Assembly: GCA_963821525.1 (NCBI GenBank)
Contig: CAWGED010000008.1
Coordinates: forward strand, 192,001-256,000
Length of the DNA: 64,000 nt
Direction: 5' to 3'
From: an uncultured Gemmatimonadales bacterium
Lineage (GTDB): Bacteria > Gemmatimonadota > Gemmatimonadetes > Gemmatimonadales > GWC2-71-9
A program made the translations under genes and the position numbers. A model generated the notes under the pieces. That model had not been told where the DNA came from. It made no database searches and saw only the letters and a program-made list of their open reading frames with translations. Numbering within the stretch: the stretch's first letter is position 1; each line of letters opens with the position of its first letter. Shown piece after piece: positions 19,828 to 34,372 of this stretch.

Positions 19828-21683
19828 ATGAGGTCTGTTATGAACCGTATTACCCGCAGGATGTTGTCTGGCGGGCTAGTCGCGGGGTTGACGATCCTCG
19901 CGGCATCGGCTCACGCCCAGGCACGTTCGGGGAAGTGGACCCTGAATGCGCCGGAGGGCGAGTGGTGGATGACCGGTCGCGATTACAGTCTCCAGCGGTT
20001 CAGCCCGCTGGCGCAGATCAACACCTCCAACGTGGCCAATCTGAAGGCCGCCTGGTCGTTCTCGACCGGCACGCTGCGCGGACATGAGGGCAACCCCCTC
20101 GTCGTCGGCAACGTGATGTACGTTCACACGTCCTTCCCGAACAATGTGTACGCGCTCGACCTGTCCAAGGAAGGCGCGCCGCAGATCTGGAAGTACGCGC
20201 CCAGTCAGTCGCCGGACGCGATTCCAATCGCCTGTTGCGACCTCGTGAACCGCGGCACTGCGTATCACCCGAGCGGCAAGCTCTACATCGAGCTGCTGCA
20301 GGGTGAGCTCGCGGCGATCGATGCCAAGTCCGGCAAGGAGCTGTGGAAGGCCAAGCACCCGGATCACTCCGGCGCGGGCGTCGAGGCGAACGGCTACAAG
20401 CAGGGCGCCACGATGACCAACGCCCCGATCGTGATCGGCGACGTCGTCATCGCCGGCATCTCGGGTGGTGAGTTCGGAGTCCGCGGCCGCGTCTCGGCGT
20501 TCGACGCGAACACGGGCAAGCACATCTGGACCGCGTACAGCACCGGCCCGGACAGCGAAACCATGATCGAGGGCGATGCCAACGCGAACTACGCGTCCCA
20601 CAAGGGGAAGGACCTCGGGGTCTCGACCTGGCAGGGCGACGAGTGGAAGCGGGGCGGCGGCACCACCTGGGGCTGGTACAGCTACGATCCCGAGCTGAAC
20701 CTGTTCTACTACAACAGCGGCAACCCCGGGACCTGGAACCCCGATCAGCGGCCGGGCGACAACAAGTGGTCCATGACCATGTGGGCTCGTAATCCGCAGA
20801 CCGGTAAGGCCAAGTGGGCGTACCAGATGACGCCGCACGACGAGTGGGACTATGACGGCATCAACGAGGACGTGCTGTTCGAGAAGGGCGGCCAGAAGCT
20901 GCTGGCCCACTTCGACCGCAACGGCATCGGCTACACCGTCGACCGGACCAACGGCAAAGTGATCGTCGCCAACGCATTCGGCCCGATCAACTGGGCAAAG
21001 AACGGCGGGCACCGGCACCCCGGTTGAGGGTGTGGTGACCACGGGCGTCCCGGTCAAGGATCCCAAGTTCGGCACCAGCTCCAAGAAGAACGGCGAGGGA
21101 ATCTGCCCCGCCGCCATCGGGTTCAAGGATCAGCAGCCCGTCGGCGTACTCGCCGATCACGGGCCTGTTCTACGTCCCCGCGAACCACATCTGCATGGAC
21201 TATGAGGGCGTGGAAGTGAAGTACACCGCCGGTCAGCCGTACGTCGGCGCGATCGTGCGGATGTTCCCGGGCCCCGGCGGCAATCGCGGCCGGTTCATCG
21301 CCTGGGATCCCATGACCGGTAAGCAGGTGTGGGAGATCAAGGAGAACCTCGCGGCGTACGGCGGCGCGCTCACCACGGCCGGCGGCATCGTGTTCTACGG
21401 CACGATGGAAGGCTGGCTCAAGGCCGTTGATCAGAAGACGGGCAAGGTGCTGTGGAAGTTCAAGACCCCGTCGGGCATCATCGGCAACCCGATGACCTAC
21501 AAGGCCCCGGATGGCAAGCAGTACGTCGCCGTTCTGTCGGGCATTGGTGGCTGGGCCGGTATCGGCGTGGCCGCGGGCATCGGCGCAGAAGATCCCACCG
21601 CCGGTCTCGGCGCGCTGGGCGCGTTTGGTGACGCGGGTCAGTTCTCCACCCAGGGTGGCGTGCTGACTGTCTTCGGGCTGTAA
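19828..21683 (+). CDS. xoxF: Lanthanide-dependent PQQ methanol dehydrogenase (XoxF type); frameshifts near 21008 and 21139
   Basis: Signal peptide, FSTGTLRGHEG, vicinal ACCD.VNRG, GGEFGVRG, GNPGTWN, HDEWDYDG, ICP.AIG.KDQQP and SGIGGW. Confidence 0.93.
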
Positions 21684-25794: not shown

Positions 25795-25875
25795 TTTAAG
25801 TGCCTTAAGCCTTAAGCCGTAAGCCTGAGTCCATGGTTGCCACGCGTACAGCTTATGGCCTAGGGCTCATGGCAC
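25795..25875. repeat. Inverted heptamer array (CCTTAAG/CCGTAAG ... CTTATGG)
   Basis: Read directly from the sequence. Confidence 0.6.
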
Positions 25876-27911
25876 CATCACACCCAATTCCTCAAACACG
25901 AAACTCCAGGTATCCACCAGCTCCTCGAGCACCTTGGAAACCGGCTTCCCCGCGCCGTGCCCTGCCTTTTCCTCCAACCGGAGCAGAATGGGTCGCCCTG
26001 AGGAAGACGCAGCCTGCAGCAACGCCGTCATTTTCCGCGCGTGCATCGGATCTACCCGCGTATCGCTCTCGGCCGTGGCAAGCAAGACAGCAGGATACGC
26101 GGTGCCCGGTTCCACTCGGTGGTAGGGCGAGTAGGCCCTCAGCCAGCCGAACTGTTCCGGATCATCGGGGTCGCCATACTCCGGGATCCAGAGCCGCGCA
26201 ATCAGGAACCGGTGATACCGCAACATGTCGAGCAGCGGAACCTGAATGACCACGGCACGGAACAGCTCCGGGCGCTGGGTGAGAGCGGCCCCCATGAGCA
26301 GCCCTCCATTCGACCCGCCGGCAATCGCCAGGCGTTCCGGCTTCGTGTAGCGCTGAGCGATCAGCCATTCGGCAGCGGCGATGAAGTCGTCGAAACTGTT
26401 CTGCTTGCGTGCCAGCATGCCGGCCTGATGCCACGATTCCCCGTATTCCCCGCCCCCTCTCAGGTTTGGCACCGCTACTACCCCGCCGCTTTCTACCCAC
26501 AGCAGCAGTGACCGGGAGAAACCCGGAGTCATGCTGATGTTGAAGCCACCGTAACCGGTCAGATAGGTCGGGTTGTCTCCCGTGAGGCTAAGCCCGTTCC
26601 GGTGCACGAGGAACATGGAGACTCCCGTGCCATCGCGCGAGGGGTAGGTCACCTGGCGTCACCTGGTAGTCCGCCGGATCGAGGTCTGCCTCGACCATTC
26701 GCCAGAGTGAGCGGGCCCCCGAATCCAGGTCCACGCGATAGACACTCGGCGGAACCGTGTATGACGAAAATCCGTAGAACAACTCTTCCCCATCCCACTC
26801 TCCGCCCCAGCCGAACACACTTCCGATTGTGGGCAACTCGAGCGGCCTCGGGTTTTTCCCCTCGAGGTCCGTCACCAGGAGACGAGAGGATGCGCGTTCC
26901 AGATAGCTGAGGGCCAGCGCGTTGCCCAGCACCATCGCGCCGTCCAGCACCGCATCGCTTCTGGTGGGAATCAGCTCTTCCCAGCGGGAGCGGTCCGGCC
27001 GCTCCGGATCGCCGCGGTAGAGCCGGTAGTTGGGAGCATCGAGGTTGGTGCGAACGTAGAGTCGCCCGCGAACGACCTGCCCTTCGAACGATGCGGGCAG
27101 ATTCTCCGCGACGGCGACGAGGGGGCCGCCGCGCTCCAGGTCCTGCAGGAAGAGGTCGGTCTGATCGAAAGTTCGAGCGACGCCGATCAGCAGCCAGCGT
27201 CCCTCGGGCGAGAGGTCAACGCTCGGCCAATGCTCCTTCTGTGACGGCTTGAAGATGAGCCGGTCTCCGGCGGGATCGTCTCCCAGGAGATGCAGGAAGA
27301 CAGCGCGGTGATACTGCTCCTCCCCTTCGGGCACCGAGCCCGGAAACGGGTAACGGGTGTAGTAGAACCCGTTGCCGCCGGGCAGCCATGCGAGGTCCGC
27401 TGCGCGAGTCCCGCTGATCCGATCGGGCTTGACCTCACCGCTATCCACATCGAGGACGTGCAGTACGCTTTCCTCGCTCCCGTTTTCGGAAAGACCATAG
27501 GCCAGGAGCTTTCCGTCCTCGCTCGGGAAATACCAGTCGAGTGCGGTAGTGCCGGCGGCATCCAGCGCATTGGGATCGAGCAGGACGCGGTCGGGGCCCT
27601 CGACTCCGTCCCGAACATACAGGACAGGTTGGTTCTGAGTTCCTTCCCTTCGCTGATAGAAGTAGCGCCCTCGAGCCGGCGTCGGAGCACTCAGCGCACC
27701 GATCTTGAGCAGTTGCTCCAGCCGGGCCCTGATGAAAGGTCTGGCGGGTACGCCGATCGAGGTAGTCGCGGGTGAACCGGTTCTGTTCGCTAGTCCAGGA
27801 CCGGGTCTCGGCGCTCTCGCCGTCCTCCAGCCAGCGATACGGATCGGGAATTCGCTCGCCATGGAGCGTGTCGACGACGCCGTACGTCGGAGAAGGTGGA
27901 GGGGAGGGCAT
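25867..27911 (-). CDS. Prolyl oligopeptidase (S9A); frameshifts near 27760 and 26660
   Basis: [36 protein letters not shown] and AGHG. Confidence 0.92.
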
Positions 27912-28036: not shown

Positions 28037-29116
28037 TCAGTCTCCAAGGCAGATCCCCAGCTCCCGGGCGGTCAGTAGCGTATCCGAGTCGAGCGGGACG
28101 TTCTTGGCACGGCCGATGACTTCGCTGAGCGGTAGCCGCGCGATGGAAGGTGGAGCGAGGGCAATCATGGTTCCAAATGCACGGTCTGCAACCGCGCGTA
28201 CTGCGGCCGCGCCGAAGCGCAGACCGAGCAACCGGTCGAAAGTCGTCGGTGATCCGCCGCGCTGAATGTGGCCCAGCACCAGACTTCGGGTCTCCTTGCC
28301 ACTCCGCTCCGCGATGGCGCGGGCCACCAGGGAGCCGATGCCTCCGAGACGGTCGGCGCTTCCGGCAGAGCGCCGCTCCAGCAGCAAGAGCTCGCCGTCC
28401 TTGGGCTTCGCACCCTCCGCTACGACCACGATGCTGAAGCGGCGGCCGGCCTCGTCTCGCTTCCGGATCTTCTCCAGCACCTTGTTCATGTCGAAGGGGA
28501 TTTCGGGGATGAGAATGACATCGGCGGTCGCTGAGACTCCGCTGTTGAGCGCGATGAATCCGGCATGGCGCCCCATCAGCTCGACGACCATGACTCGTTC
28601 ATGGCTCTCGGCCGTCGAGTGCAGCTTGTCGATCGCATCGGTCGCGGTACTCACCGCGGTGTCGAAGCCGAATGTGGCGATGGTGCCCACAACGTCGTTG
28701 TCGATCGTCTTGGGCACCCCGACGACGGGCAGACCCATCTTCCAGAGATCGTGGGCGATAGACAGGCTGCCGTCGCCCCCGATCGCAATCAGCGCATCGA
28801 ACCCGCTCGCGTTGAAGGCGTCGACCAGATCGCTCGATCGGTCCACCTCGGTATCCTTGCCGCTCGCATCCGTGACGACCCAGCAGAAGGGATTGCCGCG
28901 GTTGGTCGTGCCGAGAATGGTGCCGCCCAGGTGGGTAATCCCGCGGACCCGTTCCGGCGTGAGCGTCATGATCCCGTCGTCCCCGAGGAGCCCGCCGTAC
29001 CCCCGGCGGATTCCATAGGTCTGCCAACCCCGTCCGTGCGCCGACAGCACAATGGCTCGGATGACGGCATTGAGGCCGGGGGCGTCCCCGCCCCCGGTGG
29101 AGATGGCGATTCTCAT
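28037..29116 (-). CDS. pfkA: 6-phosphofructokinase (group III/mixed type; GGDGS + PKTIDND)
   Basis: TGGGDAPGLNA, GGTILGT, GGDGS, PKTIDND, MGR and LGHIQRGG. Confidence 0.93.
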   Translation of the reverse strand: MRIAISTGGGDAPGLNAVIRAIVLSAHGRGWQTYGIRRGYGGLLGDDGIMTLTPERVRGITHLGGTILGTTNRGNPFCWVVTDASGKDTEVDRSSDLVDAFNASGFDALIAIGGDGSLSIAHDLWKMGLPVVGVPKTIDNDVVGTIATFGFDTAVSTATDAIDKLHSTAESHERVMVVELMGRHAGFIALNSGVSATADVILIPEIPFDMNKVLEKIRKRDEAGRRFSIVVVAEGAKPKDGELLLLERRSAGSADRLGGIGSLVARAIAERSGKETRSLVLGHIQRGGSPTTFDRLLGLRFGAAAVRAVADRAFGTMIALAPPSIARLPLSEVIGRAKNVPLDSDTLLTARELGICLGD

Positions 29117-29129
29117 GGGAGAAAGCCGA

Positions 29130-29369
29130 TCACTGATTGTCGCCCAGGTGTCTCTTCAGCAATCCCGCCACCTCACCCGGCTTGGCATGTCGGCCGATTG
29201 CTTTCTTGGAGAAGATGAGGGCGCCATCGACCGTAACTTCGAACGCGCCCCCCGAAGACTTCTGGAGGCTGAATTGCGCGTACGGAATCGTTTCCTTGAG
29301 CTCGGCTACCAGACCGGTAGCCCGGGGTCCGTAGTTTCAGACCACGCAGTATTCGATGGTGATATGCAT
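29130..29369 (-). CDS. Rdx/SelW-family selenoprotein, 79 aa, CxxU (TGA = Sec at 29337-29339)
   Basis: MHITIEYCVV[TGA]NYGPRATGLVAELKETIPYAQFSLQKSSGGAFEVTVDGALIFSKKAIGRHAKPGEVAGLLKRHLGDNQ*. The Rdx signatures IEYCxxU, GxFEV and FSK lie in one frame across the TGA. Confidence 0.88.
29304..29322 (-). promoter_or_regulatory. Bacterial SECIS-like hairpin
   Basis: The mRNA reads GGCTACC-GGTCT-GGTAGCC. The loop starts with G about 22 nt after the UGA, which fits bSECIS geometry. Confidence 0.7.
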
Positions 29370-29471
29370 GGGGACGAACCTATCCCGAACCCGTCCCTCT
29401 GCCAAGCTGAGTCACAGTGCCACTTCCCGGGGGCGGGGTATATTGGGACGGTGCTTACCACTAGAGACGTC

Positions 29472-30962
29472 ATGCGGTCATTCATCACATCCGCCGTCGC
29501 ACTGATCTTCTTCACCATACCCGCTCATGCCCAGCGGCAATACCGCTTCGAGCTGGGAGCCTCCGCCGGGTACTACGCCTTCGACAGCAAGACCGAACTC
29601 GACAATGCCTTTGGTGGATCGCTTCGGGCAGGTTATTGGATAACCGGCCCCCTGTCGGTCGAAGTCGAAGGCAGTTATGCCAAGCCGAAGACCACGAGCT
29701 CCCTCAACAATGCCGTGGATGTGAAGAGCATCGGAGGTTGGGCTTTGCTCAACCTCCCCATAGGAAAATCGGCCTCCGGATTCCTCAAGGGAGGCTACGC
29801 CTCGGTGACCTACGGGAGCGGATGTCCCTCGGTCTCGGTTCCCGGAGCGGGGCCCTGCGGAACGGCGGGCGCGATCCAGGGAGGCGCCGGCGTACGCATC
29901 GCTCTGACACCGACCGTAATGATGCGCTACGAGGGAATGGTCAATCAGAGCCAGACCTTCCTGAAATTTTCCAATATCGCGGTACATGGCGGCCTGAGCC
30001 TCATGATCGGGAGCAAACCCCTGGTGGACACCGACGGGGATCGGGTCTACGACGGCTCCGACAATTGCGCCGGGACACCCGCAGGGGCATTGGTGGACAA
30101 GCACGGCTGCCCGACCGATACCGATGGGGATGGTGTAGCTGACGGGCTCGACCGGTGTCCGGACACCCCGGAAGGCGCCAAGGTAAACGCCGCCGGCTGC
30201 ACCGCCGACAGCGATGCGGACGGGGTGCTGGACGGGATCGACCAGTGCGCCGATACCCCGGTCGGCGCCACGGTGAGCGACAACGGCTGCCCGCTGGACG
30301 CGGACAAGGACGGTGTATACGACGGCCTGGATCGCTGCATGGCGACCCCCGAGGGCACCCAGGTCGATTCCCTGGGTTGCCCCAGCGATTCCGACAACGA
30401 CGGCGTGTTCGACGGGATCGACAAGTGTCCCAACACACCTTCCGGAACGACGGTGAACGCGATGGGATGCCCGCCGGGTCAGGACACCGACAAGGACGGC
30501 GTGCTCGACGCACTGGACAAGTGCCCCAATACGCCGCCCGCCACCGGGGTAGACCAGGATGGCTGTCCGGTCGCAGCTGCGCCTGTGCGGAAGCCGCCTC
30601 CGGTCGGCGCAAGTCACGCCTGGATGGTGCCGGGTGCCATGTTCCCGATGCGGAGCGCAGCACTCTCGCCCAAGGCCCAGCCGGTGCTCGATTCGGTGGC
30701 CACGGCGATGCTGGTGGACACCACCCTCAAGGCAACCGTCTCCGGGTATGCCCAGGATCGTCTGGTGCCAGGCGACAACACCAGGCTCTCACAGCAGAGG
30801 GCCGACGCAGTCCGCACCTACATCATGGGTAAGGGAGTATCGGCTCGGCGGATCACGGCGGTGGGCCGCGGTTCGCAATCGCTCATTGTAGCCGACACGA
30901 CCGAGGCGGCACGGACCATCAATCGACGGGTCGAGATCAAGCTCCAACCATTGGAGCCATAG
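29472..30962 (+). CDS. OmpA-family outer-membrane protein with six thrombospondin type-3-like repeats
   Basis: Signal peptide, beta-barrel strands, 6x DxDxDGVxDxxDxCxxTP...GC and C-terminal NxxLSxxRA...NRRVEI. Confidence 0.9.
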   Translation: MRSFITSAVALIFFTIPAHAQRQYRFELGASAGYYAFDSKTELDNAFGGSLRAGYWITGPLSVEVEGSYAKPKTTSSLNNAVDVKSIGGWALLNLPIGKSASGFLKGGYASVTYGSGCPSVSVPGAGPCGTAGAIQGGAGVRIALTPTVMMRYEGMVNQSQTFLKFSNIAVHGGLSLMIGSKPLVDTDGDRVYDGSDNCAGTPAGALVDKHGCPTDTDGDGVADGLDRCPDTPEGAKVNAAGCTADSDADGVLDGIDQCADTPVGATVSDNGCPLDADKDGVYDGLDRCMATPEGTQVDSLGCPSDSDNDGVFDGIDKCPNTPSGTTVNAMGCPPGQDTDKDGVLDALDKCPNTPPATGVDQDGCPVAAAPVRKPPPVGASHAWMVPGAMFPMRSAALSPKAQPVLDSVATAMLVDTTLKATVSGYAQDRLVPGDNTRLSQQRADAVRTYIMGKGVSARRITAVGRGSQSLIVADTTEAARTINRRVEIKLQPLEP

Positions 30963-31073: not shown

Positions 31074-32320
31074 ATGATGCGCGTTCGTTTGAGTCCTCTG
31101 ATCCTGGCTCTGGCCTTGGGCGCCCCGGTTGCCGAGGCGCAGGTCAACCGCTCCTGGGGAGATGAGCTCCGCCTGGTGCCGTCCCCCGAGCGCCTGGTTC
31201 CGGTGGCACCCCGCCAGCTGGAGCCGCTCGATTGGCCGGCGCCCCCCAGGACCACCTCCCCATCTGCGGTTCGCGCCATCTACCTCAACGCCTGGGCCTT
31301 CGGCGGGAAGCGCTTCTACGATCTCGTCCGGCTCGCCGACTCGACCGAGATCAACTCTTTCGTCGTGGACGTCAAGGACGACACCGGGTACCTGACCTAC
31401 AAGTCGTCGGTCCCCACGGCCATTCAAATCGGTGCCAACCCTCAACTCCGCGCCCGCGATGCAGCGGCTCGAGTCCGCTAAATGCTGGCGCACGGGATCC
31501 ATCCCATCGCCCGGATCGTGGTGGCGAAGGATCCGCTGCTGGCGTCGCACAAGCCGGCGTGGGCGGTGCAGATCGCCGGCGGCGGAGTCTGGCGTGACCG
31601 GCTCGACTTCGCCTGGGTCGATGCCTTCAACGATTCAGTGTGGGTCTACGCCTCGCAGCTCGCGGCCGAGGCAGTGCAGATGGGATTTGCCGAGGTGCAG
31701 TTCGATTACGTCCGCTTCCCCGATGAGCCCAGAGCCCGGATGGCGAACGCGATGTTTCCGGCTCGCCGCGCCGGAGAGACCACGCGGCATGGAGTGCGCC
31801 GCAACCTCAAGCTGCTGCGGGACCGGATAAAGCCGCTCGGGGTCCCCTTCACCATCGACGTCTTCGGGATGACGACCAACGTCGAAGTGGACATGGGGAT
31901 CGGGCAGGTGTGGGAGGATCTGGTCAGCACCGCGGACGTGGTGCTCCCGATGGTCTATCCCAGCCATTACTACAACTCGATGTACGGCGTGCGACGGCCC
32001 AACACCGAGCCCTATCGTGATCGTGAGGAGCGCACTCGAGGACGGGATACGGCGGAGTCAGAAAGTCGGTGGGCCCACCGCGGCGATCCGGCCTTACCTG
32101 CAGGCGTTCACGCTGGGCCTGCCCCGTTACACGCCCGACCACGTGCGGGACGCAGATCCGGGCGGCGCATGACGCCGGGATTGACTCGTGGGTGCTGTGG
32201 AACGCGCGGGCAGCCTACGACCCGAGAATCTTCGAAGCGGCCAACCGAAAGTCGATTGTGCGCGCGGTCAGCGAGGTCGAGCCCCCGCGCACCGCTCCGC
32301 CTCAGCCCGAAGGACACTGA
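31074..32320 (+). CDS. Putative glycoside hydrolase (DUF4015-like); in-frame TAA at 31479 and frameshifts near 32020 and 32150
   Basis: VRAIYL, VVDVKDDTG, IARIVVAKD, QFDYVRFP, PMVYPSHY, RPYLQAF and LWNA. Confidence 0.78.
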
Positions 32321-32326
32321 GGCTGA

Positions 32327-34372
32327 TCAGCCTCCGCCAACCACGGCCGGACTTTCCCAGCCGGTGATGTAACCGGCCAGCGCACTCGCCGCAGTGGTGT
32401 AAGGACTCGCCAGATACAACTGACCCGGTCCCGAGCGCCCCGGAAAGTTCCGATTGATGGCGCTGACGGTGACCGTTTCCCGATCGTAGCTGACGCCGGG
32501 ACCCGCGTTGATGCAGGCGCCGCAAGACGGCTCGATGATCTCCGCCCCCACCGCCCGAAAGACCTCGACGTAGCCCCGCTGCTCGGCATAGCGCTTCACG
32601 TCCTGGCTGCCGAACTGGATGTAGAACCGCACATCGGGATGAACCTTCTCTCCCGCGTCGGCCGCCTCCCTGAGCACCGCGGCGTACATGTCCATGTCTT
32701 CCTTCTTGCCGGCGGTGCAGCTTCCCGCGTACGCGATGTCCACCTTCACCATCCGGCCCAGTTCGCTGATGTAGAGTGCCGTTGCCGGGGTCACCGGGCA
32801 ACGCGACCATCGGCTGCAGGGCTCGGCGGCGTCGATCTCGATCACCTCGTCATACTCCGCATCGGGATCGGACTCGAGACCCTGGAGCAGCGCGGCCGCG
32901 TCGCGCGCGCGGCATGCCCGCGCTCCCGCACCAGGTAATCCACGGCCTTCTCGTCGGGCTTGATGATGCCGGTGAAGGCCCCGACTTCGGCGGCCATGTT
33001 GGTCATCGTGGCCCGCTCGTCGATCGAGAGCGCCTGCACCGCCTCTCCGGCGTACTCGACGATCTTGCCGATCGCCTGCCCGTTCTTGACATACGGGATG
33101 GCGGAGGATCTGGAGCATGAAGTCCTTCGCGGTCACGTTGGCCGGCTTGGCGCCCTTCACGCGGATCAGTACCGCCGCGGCACCGTGAGACGGACGTCGC
33201 GCGGTGAGCCAGGAATTGAAGATCGCCGTGGTGCCGACCCCGAACGCCAGGCTGCCCATGGCGCCGCTGTGCGGAGTGTGGCTGTCGCTGCCGATGATGA
33301 CCTGTCGCCGGGAAGAGCGTGCTGCTCCAGCATCTTGGAGTGACAGATCGCCTCGGAGCCGTGCGCCACCATGTTGCGGCCCAGATCGCGGCAGCTCCCC
33401 GTAGAGCTGGATGCCCTGCTGCGCGGCAAACTCCTCCTGCTTCTTCTTCAGCTCGAGCGCCACGTCGAGCAGGCCCTCCGCCTTCCGCTCGTGGGTCATC
33501 GCCAGGTCGAGGAACGTCAGATGGTCCCGGAAAAAGAAGATCGATCCGGGATCCACCACCTTCTCCTCGGGCCCGACGTTGTCGCGCCAGAAGATGGCGG
33601 CCATCGGGGTCACGTATTCGTGGCTGAAGCGAATGTCGGTGCGAACGAATCCCTCGTCTCCCGGGCGCACCGCGGGAACCCCGATCTTGCCCGAGGCAGA
33701 TCGGTTACCCAGTGGCGGGCGATGATCTTCTCGGCCAGCGTCATGGGGCGGACCGGCGTCGTGACGACCGGCACCGCAACTTTGCCCTGGAGGCGGGCAA
33801 CGTTGTAGTTGAAAAGCCCGCCGTGCTCGATGATGCCCCGGGTGATGCCGCCTTCGCCGTCGGTGAAGACCGACAGCGGGATGGTCTCTCCCCGGCGCAT
33901 CCGGTCAATGCAGCGAGAAATCGGTGCTGGTGAAGACTCCGAGGTTCTGGCAGTTCTCCCGGTAGATCCGCTCGATGTTCTCCGCGATCACCAGCCGGAT
34001 GCCGGCCATCATCTCCGCGTAGGGAGACTGCTCCCGGCTCGAGCCCTTGCCCCGCCGCTTGCCGCTCACCGAGGCCACGAAGCCGCCCTGCTTCACGGAC
34101 CCGCGCGTGATGGGAAAGTCCTGCCCGGCCTTGAGTCCGAGGTAGGGAAATTCGCCCAGCGTCTCGTCGTAGTAGTAGCAGATGTAGGCCGGCGTGATCT
34201 CGTCGGTCGAGATGTCGTCGCGAAGGGGGATCTCCGGAGTCCACTCGAGATCCTCGCCTGCCAGCTGCCGCCGGATGAGCTCGGGATCGGTGGTCAGAAA
34301 CAGGATTCGGCCGTCGAGCCGCACCTGGTCCGGCAAACGATGGATGGGACGGGATTTGAGCGAATCAAGCAT
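32327..34372 (-). CDS. Aconitase/isopropylmalate-dehydratase family fusion with N-terminal swivel (LeuD-like) domain; multiple frameshifts
   Basis: DISTDEITP, GSSRE, MTLAEKI, ICH, SDSHT, NMAAE, AGSCT, PSCGAC, NRNFPGR and LASP. Confidence 0.85.

Follow-up and report, generated by a model that had tools for sequence, protein, structure and literature searches.

What does a 79-codon frame encode when its eleventh codon is TGA, and does its place directly upstream of a phosphofructokinase (PFK) gene mean that it governs that enzyme? Both questions are raised by a locus in a 64,000-nucleotide stretch of DNA from an uncultured soil bacterium of the Gemmatimonadales (contig CAWGED010000008.1, positions 192,001 to 256,000), called the window; the genome to which it belongs is designated G000. 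Gemmatimonadota is a common soil phylum, and its best-studied cultured members are unrepresentative for selenocysteine (Sec) use. The original prediction took the frame for a hidden Rdx/SelW-type selenoprotein gene with a SECIS hairpin, co-transcribed with pfkA, and suggested that this may indicate redox control of PFK.

A UGA-interrupted frame upstream of pfk

Read on the minus strand from 29369 to 29130, the DNA has an ATG start, 79 codons and a TGA stop at 29132-29130 (Table 1). The frame runs MHITIEYCVV-TGA-NYGPRATGLVAELKETIPYAQFSLQKSSGGAFEVTVDGALIFSKKAIGRHAKPGEVAGLLKRHLGDNQ-TGA, with a single internal TGA at 29339-29337 (codon 11) in the context IEYCVV-TGA-NY and with the motifs GGAFEV and IFSKK 3' of it. 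It is absent from the six-frame list of open reading frames (60 aa minimum), and all statements about the sequence in the original prediction hold, from the TGA at the second Cys position to the 13 nt between the stop (29130) and the pfk ATG (29116). Gene finders shorten the gene because its 11th codon is UGA. The open frame of the divergent outer-membrane gene extends back antisense across the Rdx gene to 29052, which helps to hide it. This outer-membrane gene is a neighbour that stands outside the Rdx-pfk unit, and the genes upstream of Rdx differ among relatives. A consensus promoter scan, which was uninformative here, found no minus-strand sigma-70 site in the DNA upstream of Rdx.

In public protein sets these selenoproteins are either shortened to the part after the UGA (59 aa) or carry W at the Sec position. 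The entries P0003, P0006, P0011, P0016 and P0031, as well as the 59-aa entries, are mis-translated records, two also having W at the terminal stop, and mis-translation of these selenoproteins in such sets is systematic.

Table 1. Features of the Rdx-pfk locus (window coordinates) and of the second selenoprotein gene of G000.
Feature	Position	Strand	Remarks
Rdx/SelW-like selenoprotein CDS	29130..29369	-	79 residues, CVVU at 8-11, stop TGA included
In-frame UGA, predicted selenocysteine 11	29337..29339	-	Conserved TGA; aligns with second Cys of CxxC
Bacterial SECIS stem-loop	29304..29322	-	7 bp; loop GGUCU 29315-29311; invariant G 29314
Spacer, Rdx stop to pfk start	29117..29129	-	13 nt; pfk ATG at 29116
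6-phosphofructokinase, group III type, 359 aa	28037..29116	-	GGDG and PKTIDND motifs
Intergenic region, 102 nt, common to Rdx and the divergent outer-membrane gene	29370..29471		Likely holds the Rdx-pfk promoter
Divergent outer-membrane protein (beta-barrel, TSP3 repeats, OmpA)	29472..30962	+	Likely start ATG 29472
FdhA-like gene (L233)	G000:C19, TGA at 314536	-	7-bp hairpin, GGUCU loop at +19

The read-through product is a SelW-like protein

The protein read through the TGA scored over the cut-offs of both profiles with which it was to be checked, 67.7 bits on Pfam Rdx PF10262 (cut-off 22.6) and 59.2 bits on TIGR02174 (CXXU_selWTH, cut-off 34.2). With 87.4 bits on NF041051 (SelTWH_Campy), just below the cut-off of 88, it is a close relative of that group and not a member. 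Its CVVU aligns with the CxxC of the solved Rdx chains PDB 2fa8 and 2obk, the TGA taking the place of the second Cys. In an alignment of 84 relatives C8, U11, G41, F43 and K55 are invariant and the sequence after the TGA is conserved at the protein level. The profile of these relatives matched eight solved Rdx chains with E values of 3e-18 to 5e-7; the solved proteins matched were Atu0228 (2fa8), 2obk/2oka, SAV_2001 (3dex), 2p0g, C17orf37 (2ljk) and Selenoprotein W (2npb). The window protein, a Sec form, is shorter than 2fa8 and 2obk, which are CxxC proteins of 103-105 aa. A predicted structural model (mean pLDDT 84.9) has the b-a-b-b-b-a order expected of a thioredoxin-like Rdx domain.

The close relatives of the protein are from Gemmatimonadales, and the gene at 29369-29130 is a member of the long-known SelW-like (Rdx) selenoprotein family. 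The function of this family is called unclear in PMC1088965. Judging from its sequence, the product is probably a general cytoplasmic CxxU thiol/selenol oxidoreductase of thioredoxin-like type.

Two other loci depart from this form. L133 (G201:C151:14099-14251, plus strand) is an additional, divergent Rdx-like gene that does not adjoin pfk; it reads CAY-TGA and has a 6-bp hairpin to match. In L097 (G123:C9) about 55 further residues, rich in Cys, extend the C-terminus of the Rdx frame.

The UGA codon is conserved and accompanies selA

Among 61 genomes of the order Gemmatimonadales searched, all 57 Rdx matches have TGA. In a set of 201 genomes spread across the phylum Gemmatimonadota (the tallies include one unpublished genome, G187, on which alone no claim rests) an Rdx match was found in 129, and TGA in 128 of these; the sole CxxC form is that of genome G218. 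All 35 Rdx loci from other phyla have TGA as well. Contigs from four DNA runs, belonging to four studies, span 29337-29339, and no other letter occurs there among the differences listed, so that the TGC or TGT which would have spoken against the prediction did not appear. Because 57/57 relatives share the TGA and the four DNA runs agree, it cannot be put down to faulty sequencing.

In Gemmatimonadota the use of selenocysteine is the norm, as selA was found in 159 of the 201 genomes. It is present in 125/128 genomes with a TGA-form Rdx. The 42 genomes lacking selA have the TGA form in three cases, all fragmented assemblies of 130-250 contigs, and the CxxC form in one (G218); another 34 genomes of the 201 have selA and no Rdx gene. 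Joint loss of selA and Rdx was seen in separate genera (0/8 for both in g51; also G049, G057 and G059). Kin genomes are not independent in these co-occurrence counts.

A conserved hairpin downstream of the UGA

The hairpin GGCUACC-GGUCU-GGUAGCC has 7 bp, a folding energy of -11.4 kcal/mol and a loop that starts at +22 from the TGA. According to the legend of Fig. 2A in PMC13188914, the consensus bacterial SECIS has a loop of 3-9 nt with a G in the first two loop positions, and the same source gives a stem of 4-16 bp, a distance of 16-37 nt from the UGA and a minimum free energy of at most -7.5. The Rdx hairpin agrees with this consensus on all four counts, having a 5-nt loop with an early G, a 7-bp stem, a distance of 21 nt and -11.4 kcal/mol. 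It has no Rfam match: a scan of 28900-29800 returned no SECIS family and four weak chance matches.

We aligned the 48 nt that follow the TGA in 96 of 98 loci, all but the CxxC locus and a divergent extra copy; the loci were the best-scoring ones of two genome searches (61 and 201 genomes) and 40 chosen for breadth. A G at +23 is present in 96/96 loci; the U at +26 likewise never varies, nor do four positions of the stem. In an 8-pair stem 95.0% of the cells were paired, compared with 88.9% in shuffled alignments (0/500 as high), and controls with slid partners gave 16-57%. Four of the eight pairs change on both sides, a count matched by 32/500 shuffles in a test that is inflated by kinship and uses a structure drawn from the tested sequences themselves. 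Conservation of the stem was also seen at third codon positions: across 94 loci, entropy was 0.09-0.74 at three stem codons, whereas 17 conserved codons elsewhere had 1.00-1.93. Folded as a single sequence, the hairpin was no more stable than chance in windows of 39-100 nt (z -0.19 to -1.2); the 19-nt hairpin by itself gave z -3.5, a post hoc value that was set aside. The SECIS-like pattern had 52 matches genome-wide, 21 of them with at least 30 open codons and only two recognised as genes, and is thus not specific when taken alone. Single-sequence stability is not enough, and the SECIS assignment is made because the hairpin is conserved in relatives. The 7-bp hairpin with a G-initiated loop about 22 nt downstream, proposed as a SECIS, is both conserved and covarying in 96 loci.

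Selenocysteine machinery in G000

The search for selA, selB, selC and selD gave a mixed picture in the genome of the window. An intact selA (532.5 bits, over the cut-off) and a tRNA-Sec with UCA anticodon are present; selB occurs in pieces in three frames; no selD was found, the search returning just three weak matches that from their sequences look like ThiL, HypE and PurM. The assembly is 81% complete and indel-rich, with EF-Tu frameshifted too. All four congeners of the window's genome have intact selB and selD, and, short repeats apart, nothing in G000 corresponds to the 20-kb blocks that surround selD in three of them. Given the completeness, the frameshifted EF-Tu, the absent selD block and the intact genes in 4/4 congeners, the broken selB and missing selD are best explained as assembly faults. 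Use of Sec without selD was considered and rejected, as selD is over the cut-off in 56/61 genomes of the order and its block is missing from the assembly. That the organism decodes Sec, as the original prediction had it, is supported by selA, by the tRNA-Sec with UCA and by the co-occurrence of TGA-form Rdx and selA.

Several genes of G000, selB among them, are split over frames, which points to indel errors in the assembly. In the window, our own reading of the sequence gives frame-split PQQ-dehydrogenase-like (19828-21683), prolyl-oligopeptidase-like (25867-27911) and aconitase-like (32268-34372) genes; EF-Tu and selB lie at G000:C5:507611-508727 and 974880-976691, each split over frames. 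Many Gemmatimonadales have a selD with an in-frame TGA (L052-L063 and other matches), and none of the four congeners does; from these sequences, Sec and Cys forms of selD appear to alternate within the order.

G000 has a second selenoprotein gene, which is FdhA-like (651.9 bits, cut-off 666.25) and contains a single in-frame TGA. Its 7-bp hairpin has the same GGUCU loop as that of Rdx, where the loop lies one codon further from the UGA (+22 vs +19).

The neighbouring PFK and the conserved gene order

The downstream gene was predicted to be pfkA. Its product does belong to the PfkA family (PF00365, 339.9 bits; NF002872, 361.8 bits, cut-off 253), but it is a group III ('mixed-substrate') enzyme and not the classic PfkA. 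It scored 424.5 bits on TIGR02483, below the cut-off of 430.55, and the protein has one match only in G000. By the motif rule in PMC12203962, GGDG marks ATP-type enzymes and PPi enzymes typically have the Lys seen in PKTIDND; the GGDG of the window's PFK makes ATP use likely despite the PPi-type Lys, and the enzyme is, as far as motifs can tell, likely ATP-dependent.

Of the 109 genomes of the order that have Rdx, 93 have it next to pfk and in the same orientation. In three more (G184, G047 and G216) it is adjacent to a partial pfk, which gives a total of 96/109, spread over three families. One genome (G053) has no pfk within 2.5 kb downstream of Rdx. Another 12 genomes (genera g50, g14, g49, g52 and g64; 93-100% complete) have an intact TGA-form Rdx, and no orthologous pfk was found in them with the window's query (best E 1e-47 to 1e-60, or none). 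In G215 (L225, C21) a pfk remnant of 43 codons still overlaps the Rdx stop, so that pfk is caught in the course of its deletion while the selenoprotein gene persists. A helicase-like ORF now lies downstream of Rdx in six pfk-less genomes, at a gap of 4-77 nt. Conversely, 42 genomes have pfk without any Rdx match; pfk is kept in the three Sec-less genomes searched, and the two of these whose upstream DNA was read had no Rdx trace upstream of pfk. Among 15 genomes of other orders with both genes, these are adjacent in 2/2 of family f4 and apart in 13/13 of families f5-f7, and no pfk was found near Rdx at 35 loci from other phyla. A tree of Rdx sequences, with 130 rows and without L122, L134 and L068 (the CxxC locus), was built on an alignment of 77 columns, which is too short for dating the link or showing a single origin.

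Other arrangements were seen along the way. At six Anaerolineae-type loci (L170, L175, L176, L178, L205 and L206) a TGA-form Rdx gene abuts or overlaps trpS, with gaps of -4 to +3; two of the six trpS neighbours were confirmed as such. In these genomes a UGA-recoded gene is thus tied to the gene for the Trp-tRNA ligase. At L034 (G020) the Rdx gene stands between two PFK genes, the additional one being a pfk-family gene upstream of it in divergent orientation.

The gap between Rdx and pfk ranges from -10 to +98 nt, is 20 nt or less in 61/74 loci and is an overlap (-1, -4 or -10) in 29/74. A consensus scan of the coding strand found no terminator-like site between the two genes. Because of the conserved order, the short gaps and the lack of a terminator-like site, the two genes are likely co-transcribed. 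Contigs from RNA runs also bridge them (X15, 29020-29275; X16, 28942-29290), and three contigs cover the TGA. These contigs show neither strand nor a single transcript, and one crosses the divergent gap into the next gene, so that DNA carry-over is possible and they are no proof of co-transcription. The gene order itself is well supported, and the predicted co-transcription is likely.

Alternative readings of the locus

The TGA is common to 128 genomes and to independent short-read contigs, the frame beyond it is conserved at the protein level, and TGA also terminates the Rdx gene here and in many relatives. The tRNA-Trp has a CCA anticodon and a separate tRNA-Sec has UCA, and the Rdx gene disappears together with selA. 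This leaves practically no weight for reading the TGA as a true stop in a pseudogene, as an assembly error or as a Trp or Gly codon in another genetic code, even if the assembly is indel-rich, selD was not found in this genome and some public protein copies (P0003, P0006 and P0011) have W at the Sec position. We rejected that reading on the shared TGA, the protein conservation, the tRNA set and the co-loss with selA. The UGA at codon 11 is almost certainly decoded as selenocysteine. Whether the selenoprotein then acts as a direct redox regulator or protector of PFK, by reducing its cysteines or by binding the enzyme, is a separate matter. Adjacency in 96/109 genomes and start/stop overlap in 29/74 loci would suit such a role, and there are precedents: thioredoxin-f acts on plant AtPFK5 through CXDXXC (PMC7998735), and mammalian SelW has been reported as a potential PKM2 partner (PMC10943047). 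The likeness to the plant system is that a thioredoxin-fold protein acts on PFK there and a protein predicted to be thioredoxin-like is encoded beside a PFK gene here. The difference lies in the target, as AtPFK5 has the conserved CXDXXC and the Gemmatimonadales PFKs have no conserved Cys pair. We compared 72 PFKs (70 Rdx-linked and two from Sec-less genomes) and found among them neither the conserved Cys pair nor the invariant Cys of a thiol-redox-regulated PFK of the AtPFK5 type. Two Cys within four residues occur in only 2/72, and one linked PFK (L026) is without any Cys. Position 214 is Cys in 61/72, but Leu in the window's PFK. Solved bacterial PFKs have an Ile at the aligned site, and the enzymes of the set that lack the Cys have V, L, A, I or Y instead, hinting at a buried residue; both PFKs from Sec-less genomes keep Cys214 without any Rdx. 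As for the cysteines of the window's PFK itself, two congeners have Arg in place of Cys78, and a Cys occupies position 356 in only 24/72. Rdx without pfk and pfk without Rdx both persist, and homologues in other phyla precede other genes, e.g. trpS. With no invariant Cys or Cys pair and each gene kept without the other, the suggested redox control of PFK is not supported; we regard direct action on PFK as very improbable, and the Rdx selenoprotein likely does not control PFK directly.

A link could also run through translation, with Rdx serving partly as a selenium sensor whose UGA read-through sets the PFK level by translational coupling or polarity. General operon behaviour predicts some downstream effect of a stop at codon 11, the gaps are short (20 nt or less in 61/74 loci, with overlaps of -1, -4 or -10 in 29), and in the window's genus the Shine-Dalgarno sequence of pfk is weak or absent (-4.3 to +1.2 kcal/mol). 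However, the strongest pfk Shine-Dalgarno matches are found at the overlapping loci (median -5.5), and the sites of stand-alone pfk genes in Sec-less genomes (-2.6 to -3.5) are no stronger than that of the window; a weak site is thus no sign of dependence on Rdx translation. Gaps of up to 98 nt, the helicase-like ORF that takes over the place at 4-77 nt after pfk loss and the Anaerolineae homologues abutting trpS also speak against it, and we consider selenium-gated PFK output highly doubtful.

Taken together, our results are best explained, with a probability of roughly 80%, by a SelW-like selenoprotein that receives Sec at UGA11 with the aid of a SECIS and works as a general oxidoreductase, its link to pfk being an inherited gene order and not the mark of a dedicated regulator. 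SelB-mediated insertion of Sec is an established bacterial mechanism (PMC1794560). At this locus SelB-GTP-Sec-tRNA(UCA) would, with very high confidence, bind the G-containing loop 22 nt past the UGA and insert Sec at codon 11. As the CxxU motif suggests, Cys8 and Sec11 would cycle between a selenenyl-sulfide and the reduced form, reducing oxidised protein thiols. The spacing suggests that the ribosome would end 13 nt before the pfk ATG and that pfk would be translated from the same mRNA. The Rdx-pfk order may be an early acquisition of this branch of the phylum, and keeping so small a gene at the start of a housekeeping operon would cost little. We favour an inherited order because Rdx is kept in 12 pfk-less genomes, pfk is kept in Sec-less genomes, and the genes are unlinked in 13/15 genomes of other orders. 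Against this reading, the order in 96/109 genomes and in 2/2 of f4 is stronger than a neutral leftover might give.

Relation to known SelW-like proteins and significance

Prokaryotic SELENOW-like selenoproteins with CxxU are listed in PMC1088965, PMC1794560, PMC9312934 and PMC13188914, and with 48 genes the SelW-like CxxU family ranked first in abundance among the selenoprotein families of the Sargasso Sea set (PMC1088965). The Gemmatimonadota gene shares with them the CxxU near the N-terminus, GxFEV and FSK motifs, a length of about 80 aa, the UGA with an in-gene SECIS and the scarcity of Cys forms in Sec users (1/129 in Gemmatimonadota). It differs in being widespread in its phylum and fixed before a group III pfk in Gemmatimonadales. 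An experimental parallel is SelW of Campylobacter jejuni, for which translation of UGA as Sec was demonstrated by Ribo-seq and proteomics (PMC11955535). Like the gene described here, it encodes a small protein (80 aa) that was missed by annotation and has UGA as Sec (PMC11955535). It is carried on a small transcript, CJnc60, first described as an sRNA, whereas Rdx here heads a likely pfk operon. In the literature searched neither the Rdx-pfk order nor a SelW of Gemmatimonadota was reported; subscription papers or supplementary selenoproteome tables may list them. The SelW-like family is already known, and what appears to be new is its spread in Gemmatimonadota and the lineage-specific order with pfk, both absent from the literature searched. 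To a specialist the Rdx gene itself is expected and the gene order mildly interesting.

The finding mends an annotation blind spot for an Rdx selenoprotein gene. Its new contribution is that the idea of PFK control was tested by two-way gene loss and by cysteine conservation, with an outcome against it. It is unlikely that Gemmatimonadales link glycolysis to selenium or redox state, whether by action of the SelW-like protein on their main PFK or by read-through coupling that sets PFK output. If they did, PFK would be the first physiological partner of any bacterial SelW-like protein, and this in a soil lineage that is not known as a major selenocysteine user. To our knowledge no substrate has been described for bacterial SelW-like proteins, which makes a conserved operon partner a useful starting point. 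The pfk partner is such a lead, yet the comparative evidence favours an inherited gene order over control of PFK.
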